Positions 1,315 to 2,806 of a stretch of DNA of 36,317 bases are shown here, one piece after another. Origin of the DNA: a virus. Its lineage: Duplodnaviria; Heunggongvirae; Uroviricota; Caudoviricetes. Under the pieces are notes generated by a model, which was not told the origin of the DNA, made no database searches, and saw only the letters and a list, made by a program, of their open reading frames with translations. Each line of letters begins with the position of its first letter. Within the stretch, counting starts at the first letter, position 1. The position numbers and the translations under genes are program-made. The stretch lies in IMG/VR virus record IMGVR_UViG_2617270990_000004; one strand, given 5' to 3'.

Positions 1315-1421
1315 TATTCATTCTTCCAGATTCCTTTCGGCAGAGCCTTATACTGAAATATACCTGGCTCAGGATATTGTTGAAAATATTATATGTTTGT
1401 CAAAAATAAAAGTTCTGTTAA

Positions 1422-1778
1422 GTGTTGATTGAGTGTTTGTTATACGGTCTAATGGTTTTTTCAGCATTAAATATTTATCATTCATATGGTGTGGGTAGAG
1501 TGAATATTGATGAGGCGTCGGGGTGTTTCATCCTTAGGCAGCGTATTGATATAGTCAATGCAGAACGAGCAAAGGCCTTCAGCCGTTTGACAGTTTTGTT
1601 CTGTACTCCTGATCGTCTTTCGGGAAGAGACGTTATTATTCTGAATAGTGATGCTATACAGAGGGTTTGCGATGAGTTCATGGTGGCTAATTCAGAATTA
1701 TTTGCTCTTGTTCAGGAGTACAACAGAATAGCCAGGACCTGTGGTATGGATGAACTTCGGATTACTCATCTGGGGTAG
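1422..1778 (+). CDS. hypothetical protein, AT-rich cargo ORF (start uncertain; GTG 1422 or ATG 1452)
   Basis: 118-aa ORF in the tRNA to nanS-p interval. No convincing Shine-Dalgarno and no family recognised. Confidence 0.3.
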   Translation: MLIECLLYGLMVFSALNIYHSYGVGRVNIDEASGCFILRQRIDIVNAERAKAFSRLTVLFCTPDRLSGRDVIILNSDAIQRVCDEFMVANSELFALVQEYNRIARTCGMDELRITHLG

Positions 1779-2170
1779 ATACATATCTGGATTATCACCG
1801 GTTACGGTAAAAAGTGATTGCTTACTGTTTTTGTGAATGGCATTGCAGCAGCCGGATAATGTCAGTGCTGGCTGACGGTGTGCTGGTGGCGGGGGTGGTG
1901 GTTGCTGCTTTCCCGTTGCTGAAAAAGAAAACGCCAGACTGTTAGCCGGGTATCAGTTAGCGGGAGAAATTTTTAAATACTTCACAATTCAGGCGGTTGA
2001 CTGTTGTCTGGTTTGCGGGGAGTTTGTTAAAAGAAACTGGCATGGTGAATCCCCCTGTGCGGAGGGGCAATCAGCGAGTAGGTATATGGGATAATCGCGG
2101 ATTCAGGTGCTGGTACTGAATTCACCGGGAGGCACCCGGCACCATGCAATGGCACATAGCGCCACTCTCC

Positions 2171-2205
2171 AGCCCCTCTCCGGAGGGGCTGTTTATATTG
2201 ATTTT
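2171..2205 (+). terminator. candidate rho-independent terminator
   Basis: Hairpin AGCCCCTC-TCCG-GAGGGGCT followed by the T-rich GTTTATATTGATTTT. Confidence 0.35.
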
Positions 2206-2225
2206 GTCAGATGTGAGTAAACTCC

Positions 2226-2561
2226 TTATGGACTTTGTTGTTTTAGCCCATAAGGACATATTTGCAGAGTGCAACGGTTATTAAAGCATTCATTCAATAC
2301 GTTATCTGTATTTGTAGGGCATTCCTGGCTGTTTTTGATTAAATTCCAGAATGTTTTATTGAATGGTACTACGTTGTAAATGGTTACAGGCAGCACTTTG
2401 TTATTGAGCATGATGCCTGTGTGAGTCAGTGTAAATATACTTTCAGGAGGTAAGAAAGCATCCGATTGATACCAGATTATTAATTTTATTTTACTCCATA
2501 TGACTGAAAAAGATATTCCGCATGATGGCTGGATAACTGTATCAATCACAATCCACTTCAT
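2226..2561 (-). CDS. hypothetical protein, AT-rich cargo ORF
   Basis: 111-aa ORF with AAGGAAACTAAA-ATG (SD-like AGGAA about 8 nt upstream). Several Cys residues; no family recognised. Confidence 0.4.
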
Positions 2562-2806
2562 TTAGTTTCCTTGTTTATGCCTTGCTGGTGATGTTCTGAA
2601 AAGTATAAATGATATTTTTGATTGTAAACCATAGAGCAGAATTATTTTTCTGATGTTGTTTATTGTTTATTTAAATGCAGGGTGGTTTATATCTCGTCTT
2701 GTAGTTTATCCATGCATATCTGCTTGATGATGAGGTTTTTAATTAAGGTATGGTTTTGTGTTTTTTCTGTATTACATGTCAGGTATTTTAAAGAATCATT
2801 TTTCAG

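Follow-up and report, generated by a model that had tools for sequence, protein, structure and literature searches.

The viral genome IMGVR_UViG_2617270990_000004 (Caudoviricetes) from the IMG/VR collection was analysed over its whole stretch of 36,317 nt, which is referred to as the window in the following. The subject of this analysis is the interval at positions 1315-2806, located between a phage tRNA-Arg gene and the gene nanS-p. In the initial annotation, which was made from the sequence alone, this interval was described as uncharacterised, AT-rich cargo at the site where Shiga toxin (Stx)-converting phages carry stxAB. The features named there are present at or near the positions given, as judged by the list of open reading frames (ORFs), ARAGORN and Rfam, and none of them is new: the minus-strand ORF encodes IraL, a protein characterised by experiment, the hairpins belong to STnc100 of Rfam, the small peptide belongs to DUF3927 of Pfam (TciB-like), and the plus-strand ORF, termed ORF1 here, falls into phrog_2873. 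The locus is therefore already known and consists of iraL, the small RNA (sRNA) STnc100, a truncated membrane-peptide gene and one conserved gene that was missed by annotators. The identities between sequences, the assignment to families, the selection on ORF1 as a coding sequence and the arrangement in slots, as reported below, are results of this analysis. The following features were found at the locus and its borders:

2226..2561, minus strand: iraL, RssB anti-adaptor (IraM/IraL/RssC family), 111 amino acids, ATG start; 100% protein identity to IraL of CFT073
2562..2628, minus strand: 5′ untranslated region (5′-UTR) of iraL with a putative sigma-70 promoter, −35 TTTACA (2628..2623), −10 TATACT (2607..2602), transcription start site (TSS) at about 2594 and Shine-Dalgarno (SD) sequence AAGGAA; from reading of the sequence and the published TSS
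2011..2200, plus strand: STnc100 sRNA (Rfam RF02076, PasD-related), multi-hairpin, about 190 nt; cmscan 132.4 bits against a gathering cutoff of 47, E-value 2e-30
1500..1778, plus strand: ORF1, gene of a conserved 92-amino-acid protein, GTG start; phrog_2873, coding selection and conserved start
1814..1945, plus strand: 43-amino-acid DUF3927 (TciB-like) ORF, GTG start, apparently 5′-truncated, with one transmembrane (TM) helix (about residues 15-36); Pfam PF13064, 92.7 bits against a cutoff of 25
1323..1981, plus strand: cargo slot A, the place of stx2AB in 933W, holding ORF1 and the DUF3927 remnant here; blastn breakpoints against 933W (L015) and L006
1238..1314, plus strand: tRNA-Arg (anticodon UCU), argO-like, last of the phage tRNA array and left boundary of the cargo site; ARAGORN, Rfam tRNA 68 bits
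2822..4678, plus strand: nanS-p, encoding a sialate O-acetylesterase (SASA family) with DUF1737 at its N-terminus, bordering the cargo site on the right; Pfam DUF1737, SASA and DUF6645
1..1200, transposase at 33..1151 on the minus strand: partial IS4-family insertion sequence (IS) of the IS421/IS186 type, ending at 1200; library matches and homology breakpoint

By its sequence, the minus-strand ORF is iraL. Its product is identical over all 111 residues to WP_000871291.1 of CFT073, the characterised member of the family, the gene of which lies in a prophage integrated next to potC/potD. It also matches the NCBIfam model NF007393 (anti-adapter protein IraM) over its full length with a score of 162 bits (cutoff 121), residues 1-110 aligning to profile positions 1-113 of 114, and the solved IraM fragment in the PDB entry 8twd with an E-value of 5e-31. 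With IraM of K-12 it shares 66 identical residues (66/112, 58.9%), which is the figure published for IraL (PMC4045071). The coding sequence is intact and differs from that of CFT073 by only two silent nucleotide substitutions. The initial annotation had noted a good SD sequence and several cysteines for this ORF, and both are there, the former as AAGGAA 7 nt ahead of the ATG and the latter as five residues at positions 14, 81, 92, 97, and 102.

The activity of IraL is taken from the literature. The CFT073 gene, located on the "potB genomic island", was named iraL by Hryckowian et al. (2014, mBio; PMC4045071), who also reported its 58.9% identity to IraM. IraL raises the level and the stability of RpoS in log phase, binds RssB through contacts with the N-terminal domain only, while IraM contacts both domains, and is functional from its native promoter when the gene is moved into K-12; iraL is widespread in E. 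coli and Shigella (PMC4045071). Under the locus tag c1429 the gene was found to be induced upon a temperature shift to 37°C (PMC12890032), and its levels are increased in a fur mutant (PMC7157518).

The native-promoter fragment of iraL was defined as −100 to +33 relative to the TSS (PMC4045071). Since this fragment ends at +33, the TSS would precede the ATG by about 33 nt and lie near window position 2594. The sequences TATACT and TTTACA upstream of it probably constitute the −10 and −35 hexamers of the iraL promoter, as their position fits the published TSS. They are separated by a spacer of 15 nt, and the site was not reported by a consensus promoter scan. Both hexamers are identical to those of CFT073, and the 133 bp that precede the ATG (2562-2694) contain three mismatches.

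The closest relative of the whole arrangement is the iraL locus of CFT073, which shows the same order of Q, tRNA-Ile/Arg/Arg, DUF3927, STnc100, iraL and the nanS-p/DUF1737 gene, with 98.2% identical DNA over 1.8 kb. In CFT073, however, nanS-p is truncated and an IS200 follows Q, whereas nanS-p is of full length in the window and an IS421/IS186 element interrupts the tRNA array. IraM (YcgW) of K-12, an RssB anti-adaptor induced by Mg2+ starvation via PhoP and partially solved as PDB 8twd, belongs to the same family NF007393, and the shared residues include the conserved N-terminal domain and the cysteine-rich C-terminal tail. At the nucleotide level the two genes are only about 71% identical; the similarity ends with the coding region, and the flanks are unrelated. 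In contrast to IraM, IraL acts in log phase (PMC4045071).

Next to iraL, GC-rich hairpins had been noted at 2040-2200. They are present, but they are not separate features, as they form a single element of 190 nt at 2011..2200. By covariance score, terminator and conserved position this element is a member of the STnc100 family. The match covers all 206 positions of the model (1-206) and recurs in the Rfam scan of the whole window. The element ends in an intrinsic terminator, which consists of a stem at 2170..2191 and a uridine tract and was found in a terminator scan, and its minimum free energy is −74.6 kcal/mol (z −2.2). In 933W a member of this family lies 75 nt after stxB2, and further members were found at the same prophage position in the loci L006, L007, L008 and L013, with two copies in L008.

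The transcription of STnc100 as a discrete sRNA is known from the literature. STnc100 was noted 75 nt downstream of stx2B (PMC12370729), and for EDL933 11 copies were listed with RNA-seq read counts, one of which was confirmed by Northern blot (PMC5331693). It is related to the PasD sRNAs, and the PasD and STnc100 variants can be mistaken for each other (bioRxiv 10.64898/2026.05.13.724894). Like the STnc100/PasD elements in prophages of enteropathogenic and enterohaemorrhagic E. coli (EPEC/EHEC), the copy in the window has the full model length, a terminator and a place between cargo and nanS-p as in 933W, but the copies of Stx phages are only about 71-78% identical to it. In the identical DNA of O104:H4 and CFT073, PGAP lists a pseudogene ("incomplete hypothetical protein") at the position corresponding to 2030..2155 on the minus strand. 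This is probably an annotation artefact, because it lies wholly inside the STnc100 gene and antisense to it.

Upstream of STnc100, the initial annotation proposed a 28-amino-acid hydrophobic peptide at 1859..1945. The peptide is encoded there, but it does not represent an ORF of its own, being the C-terminal part of the 43-amino-acid ORF 1814..1945, which PGAP annotates in identical DNA. In addition to PF13064, the 43-amino-acid ORF matches phrog_1470 ("TciB-like") with an E-value of 1.5e-11, and its residues 12-39 equal TciB of JLK-2012 at 27 of 28 positions. The DNA homology to tciB begins only at window position 1846, and the first 11 residues are unrelated. Full-length relatives, namely TciB of JLK-2012 and the DUF3927 genes in L017 and L019, have 50-54 amino acids and two hydrophobic helices, and full-length DUF3927 genes follow a gene of 141-165 amino acids, which is tciA in JLK-2012 and shows faint TerB matches in L017-L020. 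In the window only the second helix is kept, and no tciA was found between 1778 and 1814. Because the tciB homology starts at 1846, tciA is missing and the first helix is gone, the ORF is best read, on this comparison, as a 5′-truncated remnant of tciB. A literature search on DUF3927/TciB returned only unrelated Trypanosoma papers.

The tciA-tciB pair of JLK-2012 occupies the same slot between the tRNAs and STnc100/nanS-p and has a matching C-terminal TM helix. It differs from the locus in the window, in which tciA is missing, the 11 unrelated residues stand in place of the first TM helix of TciB and ORF1 precedes the remnant. In more distant lambdoid prophages (L017 5001-6063; L019 5001-6038; L018; L020) a relative of ORF1 is followed by a TerB-like tciA, a two-TM DUF3927 tciB and then the holins. 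This suggests an ancestral accessory module of three genes; in the window its first gene and half of its third gene are left.

ORF1 had been reported as 1422..1778 on the plus strand. This is the maximal ORF of 118 amino acids with a GTG start, the upstream 26 codons of which are not conserved as coding sequence. In the homologous loci L013 and L014, in-frame stop codons are located upstream of the shared start GTG AAT ATT GAT GAG, which places the conserved start at window position 1500. Residues 11-118 of the 118-amino-acid ORF match phrog_2873 over its complete profile (1-108 of 108) with an E-value of 1.7e-70. Compared with the homologue in L008, the core of 92 codons shows a ratio of non-synonymous to synonymous substitutions (dN/dS) of 0.28, whereas the shifted frames are stop-rich and give 1.24 and 0.90. 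The nucleotide differences to L008 are distributed as 25, 22, and 42 over the codon positions 1, 2, and 3. As far as can be read from such comparisons, ORF1 is a real gene under purifying selection. In L008 (4625-5082), an IS2-like element lies directly upstream of the GTG start of the ORF1 homologue, leading to an artificial N-terminal extension (P0017); another member of the family is located at L013 4001-4279.

The ORF1 family is small. Its homologues show 54-64% protein identity, a profile search against 1.84 billion representatives returned only 22 clusters, and in a scan of the genome collection with alignment A2 the only species-representative locus was one in E. coli. Distant relatives with 22-41% identity, five of 91-95 amino acids and one of 106, are present in other lambdoid prophages, and one of them has a canonical SD sequence (GGGAGA) and is located downstream of a Q-like antiterminator. 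The position downstream of Q is kept in unrelated prophages. AlphaFold2 predicts a two-helix hairpin for the ORF1 core (helices 3-34 and 50-81), with a predicted local distance difference test score (pLDDT) of 88.9 and a conserved TPDR-x-SG motif in the connecting loop.

ORF1 has no match in Pfam, NCBIfam or PADLOC. PADLOC was also negative for two distant relatives, and nine members of the family gave only scattered single-member noise against Pfam at E-values of up to 1. No similarity to TciA was found. A homology to GapR/UPF0335, indicated by profile matches of the first helix to PDB sequences (E-values 0.04-0.2), was rejected, as it has no Pfam support, GapR is absent among the structural matches listed and the composition looks coiled-coil-like. 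In the RefSeq records inspected (O104:H4, CFT073) and in mEp460 ORF1 is not annotated; the RefSeq features under the interval are a "DUF3927 family protein", a pseudo "hypothetical protein" and an "anti-adapter protein IraM". A variant of ORF1 with 57-64% identity occurs in 89 other genomes, and no annotation lies under the match in the records listed.

With regard to the genomic context, the placement at the stx cargo site is correct. In 933W, the order of the genes is argO (2296-2372), stx2A (2463-3422), stx2B (3434-3703), STnc100 (3778-3983), AsxR on the minus strand (3985-4037), and nanS-p (from 4190 onward). The tRNA-Arg at 1238..1314, the single tRNA found by ARAGORN, is homologous to argO of 933W. 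Homology between the two genomes extends over 1204-1322 (tRNA), is broken at 1322, returns at 1982-2148 (STnc100) and resumes at 2821 with nanS-p. In the prophage PPwrbA_EH2201 (L006), only about 57 nt separate the tRNA-Arg flank from STnc100, so that the site is effectively empty there. From the breakpoints to 933W and this nearly empty site it follows that the locus has two cargo slots, the boundaries of which were set by comparison with 933W, PPwrbA_EH2201, JLK-2012, mEp460 and vB_EcoS-640R1.

Slot A, from the tRNA to STnc100, contains stx2AB in 933W, tciA-tciB in JLK-2012 and ORF1 with the DUF3927 remnant here. Slot B, from STnc100 to nanS-p, is occupied on the minus strand in both 933W and the window, by the anti-sRNA AsxR in the former and by iraL in the latter. 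In both cases the minus-strand cargo (L015 3985-4037 and 2226..2561, respectively) converges on the STnc100 terminator. The stx2AB locus of 933W thus shares with the window the flanking argO tRNA, STnc100, nanS-p and a minus-strand element between the latter two, but the window lacks the toxin genes, and its cargo is unrelated in sequence and function.

The nanS-p gene downstream was confirmed by its domain content of DUF1737, SASA and DUF6645. Its longest ORF begins with an ATG at 2807, and in identical DNA PGAP uses the ATG at window position 2822 (L001 7508; MAFKHYD...). On the other side of the locus, the IS is inserted inside an argN-like tRNA-Arg ahead of the intact tRNA-Arg, and the homology to CFT073 resumes at window position 1204 within this tRNA. 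The exact junction of IS, tRNA and cargo was found in no complete E. coli genome of the collection; similar IS421 insertions beside tRNA-Arg are present in others. Elsewhere in the window, IS009 of Rfam (RF02111) matches at 32505..32703 on the plus strand with 224.5 bits against a gathering cutoff of 117, within an ORF (32162..32746) of the prophage's tail-fibre region.

The G+C content of the interval is 39.8%, compared to 53.5% for the whole window. The description as AT-rich holds for the flanking parts, with 31% G+C at 1315-1499, 35% at 2201-2561 and 30% at 2562-2821, but not for the central part at 1500-2200, which has 44-55%.

By megablast, at least 80% of the interval is held by 863 of the 5,426 complete E. 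coli genomes, and the full 1,492 bp were found at 99.9% identity in many E. coli strains, among them the O104:H4 outbreak lineage. Among the deposited phage genomes searched, none contains the interval in full. Its left half, up to window position 2148, is present in the phage mEp460, and the right half, from about 1982, in the vB_EcoS-640R1 group. Since the two halves occur in different phages and none has the whole, the interval is a mosaic of separable modules. ORF1, DUF3927 and STnc100 occur together in all 66 informative ORF1-bearing IMG/VR contigs, and 45 of these also carry iraL.

Taking these data together, we consider it very probable that the interval belongs to a lambdoid prophage of the CFT073 potB type and represents a mosaic region of accessory genes ("morons"), which occupies the stxAB site with two slots around STnc100 and carries iraL as its conversion function. 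The expectation of an alternative lysogenic-conversion cargo was thus borne out by IraL, which raises RpoS (PMC4045071), and the interval is not a conserved non-coding spacer, as its two ORFs are genuine genes. iraL lies on the strand opposite to the late operon and would be transcribed from its own sigma-70 promoter while the prophage is repressed. IraL would then bind the N-terminal domain of the adaptor RssB and sequester it. With RssB blocked, RpoS would no longer be delivered to ClpXP and would accumulate during exponential growth, raising the general stress response. The literature reports these steps for the identical protein, and they would apply by extension to this strain. Slot A and STnc100 are co-directional with the late operon, and on induction ORF1, the tciB remnant and STnc100 may be read through by the Q-modified polymerase.

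Several points weigh against this view. The IS421/IS186 copy (window 1..1200) lies directly upstream of the cargo, inside the preceding tRNA-Arg, so that the presumed link of slot A to Q/pR′ may be disturbed. The window differs from CFT073 at 2595 and 2622, beside the putative TSS and the −35 hexamer of iraL. The DUF3927 remnant may not be expressed, and the ribosome-binding site of ORF1 is weak. Furthermore, the expression of the cargo in this particular strain is something we infer.

If the insertion beside the locus and the two substitutions at the promoter are taken as signs of decay, the iraL copy could be a silent passenger of a defective prophage without effect on RpoS. This seems quite unlikely, as the coding sequence is intact, its protein is identical to functional IraL with only the two silent differences from CFT073, the −10 and −35 hexamers are unchanged and the promoter is its own and independent of phage late transcription (PMC4045071). 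Similarly improbable is that ORF 1422/1500..1778 is a chance ORF in an AT-rich spacer which the NCBI pipeline left unannotated for this reason. Its GTG start with a weak SD sequence, the lack of a Pfam or NCBIfam match and the missing annotation in O104:H4, CFT073, mEp460 and the 89 genomes with the divergent variant would fit such an origin. A chance ORF, however, would hardly account for a dN/dS that is 0.28 in the reading frame and about 1 in the shifted frames, for the surplus of differences at third codon positions, for the conservation at 57-64% protein identity with more distant relatives (22-41%) of similar length (91-106 amino acids), one of them with the SD sequence GGGAGA, for the conserved position downstream of Q in unrelated prophages or for the confident AlphaFold2 model.

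The initial annotation further raised the possibility of a toxin, and it could be argued that the interval encodes a new and so far uncharacterised toxin or conversion factor, as an analogue of Stx, with the small hydrophobic peptide acting as a membrane toxin. The site is the stx site, in the 43-amino-acid ORF a single, strongly hydrophobic helix precedes KKK, and the label of its PHROG family reads [quoted passage not shown]. We nevertheless regard this explanation as highly improbable. All four elements fall into existing families, one of which is functionally characterised. Searches of Pfam, NCBIfam, PHROG and PADLOC found no ribosome-inactivating protein (RIP; A subunit), AB5 B-subunit or any other toxin domain for any ORF of the interval, nor defence domains, and no Pfam match of the 43-amino-acid ORF to Hok or another toxin family. 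A permissive Rfam scan (E-value up to 1) of 1100-3000 yielded only the tRNA and STnc100, the latter of which does not overlap 1814..1945, so that neither an antisense RNA of the antitoxin type nor a type I toxin family (Hok, Ldr, Ibs type) was detected. In addition, the peptide is the truncated half of a two-TM protein, the usual partner gene of which, tciA, is missing.

Within the moron region, the small unannotated ORF1 family is the sole unexplained component. As a family of predicted helical hairpins it heads, in fuller prophages, the late-region module ORF1-tciA(TerB-like)-tciB(DUF3927) between Q and the lysis genes, the part of the late region in which Stx phages have stx, and it is possible, though rather doubtful, that it acts as a host-modulating factor, e.g., one related to envelope stress or superinfection, and not in phage housekeeping.

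For the lambdoid prophages, these results confirm the stx site as a general two-slot cargo site around STnc100. Two consequences concern annotation: the annotated 43-amino-acid "DUF3927 family protein" at this locus appears to be a truncated tciB, and ORF1 represents a gap, as it is unannotated in the RefSeq records inspected, though the 863 complete genomes mentioned above contain at least 80% of the interval. The RpoS stabiliser IraL is what one of the two slots delivers in many non-Stx prophages, those of O104:H4 and CFT073 among them. This is established knowledge, and it is useful for the annotation of such loci as well as for understanding how prophages tune the stress physiology of their host.

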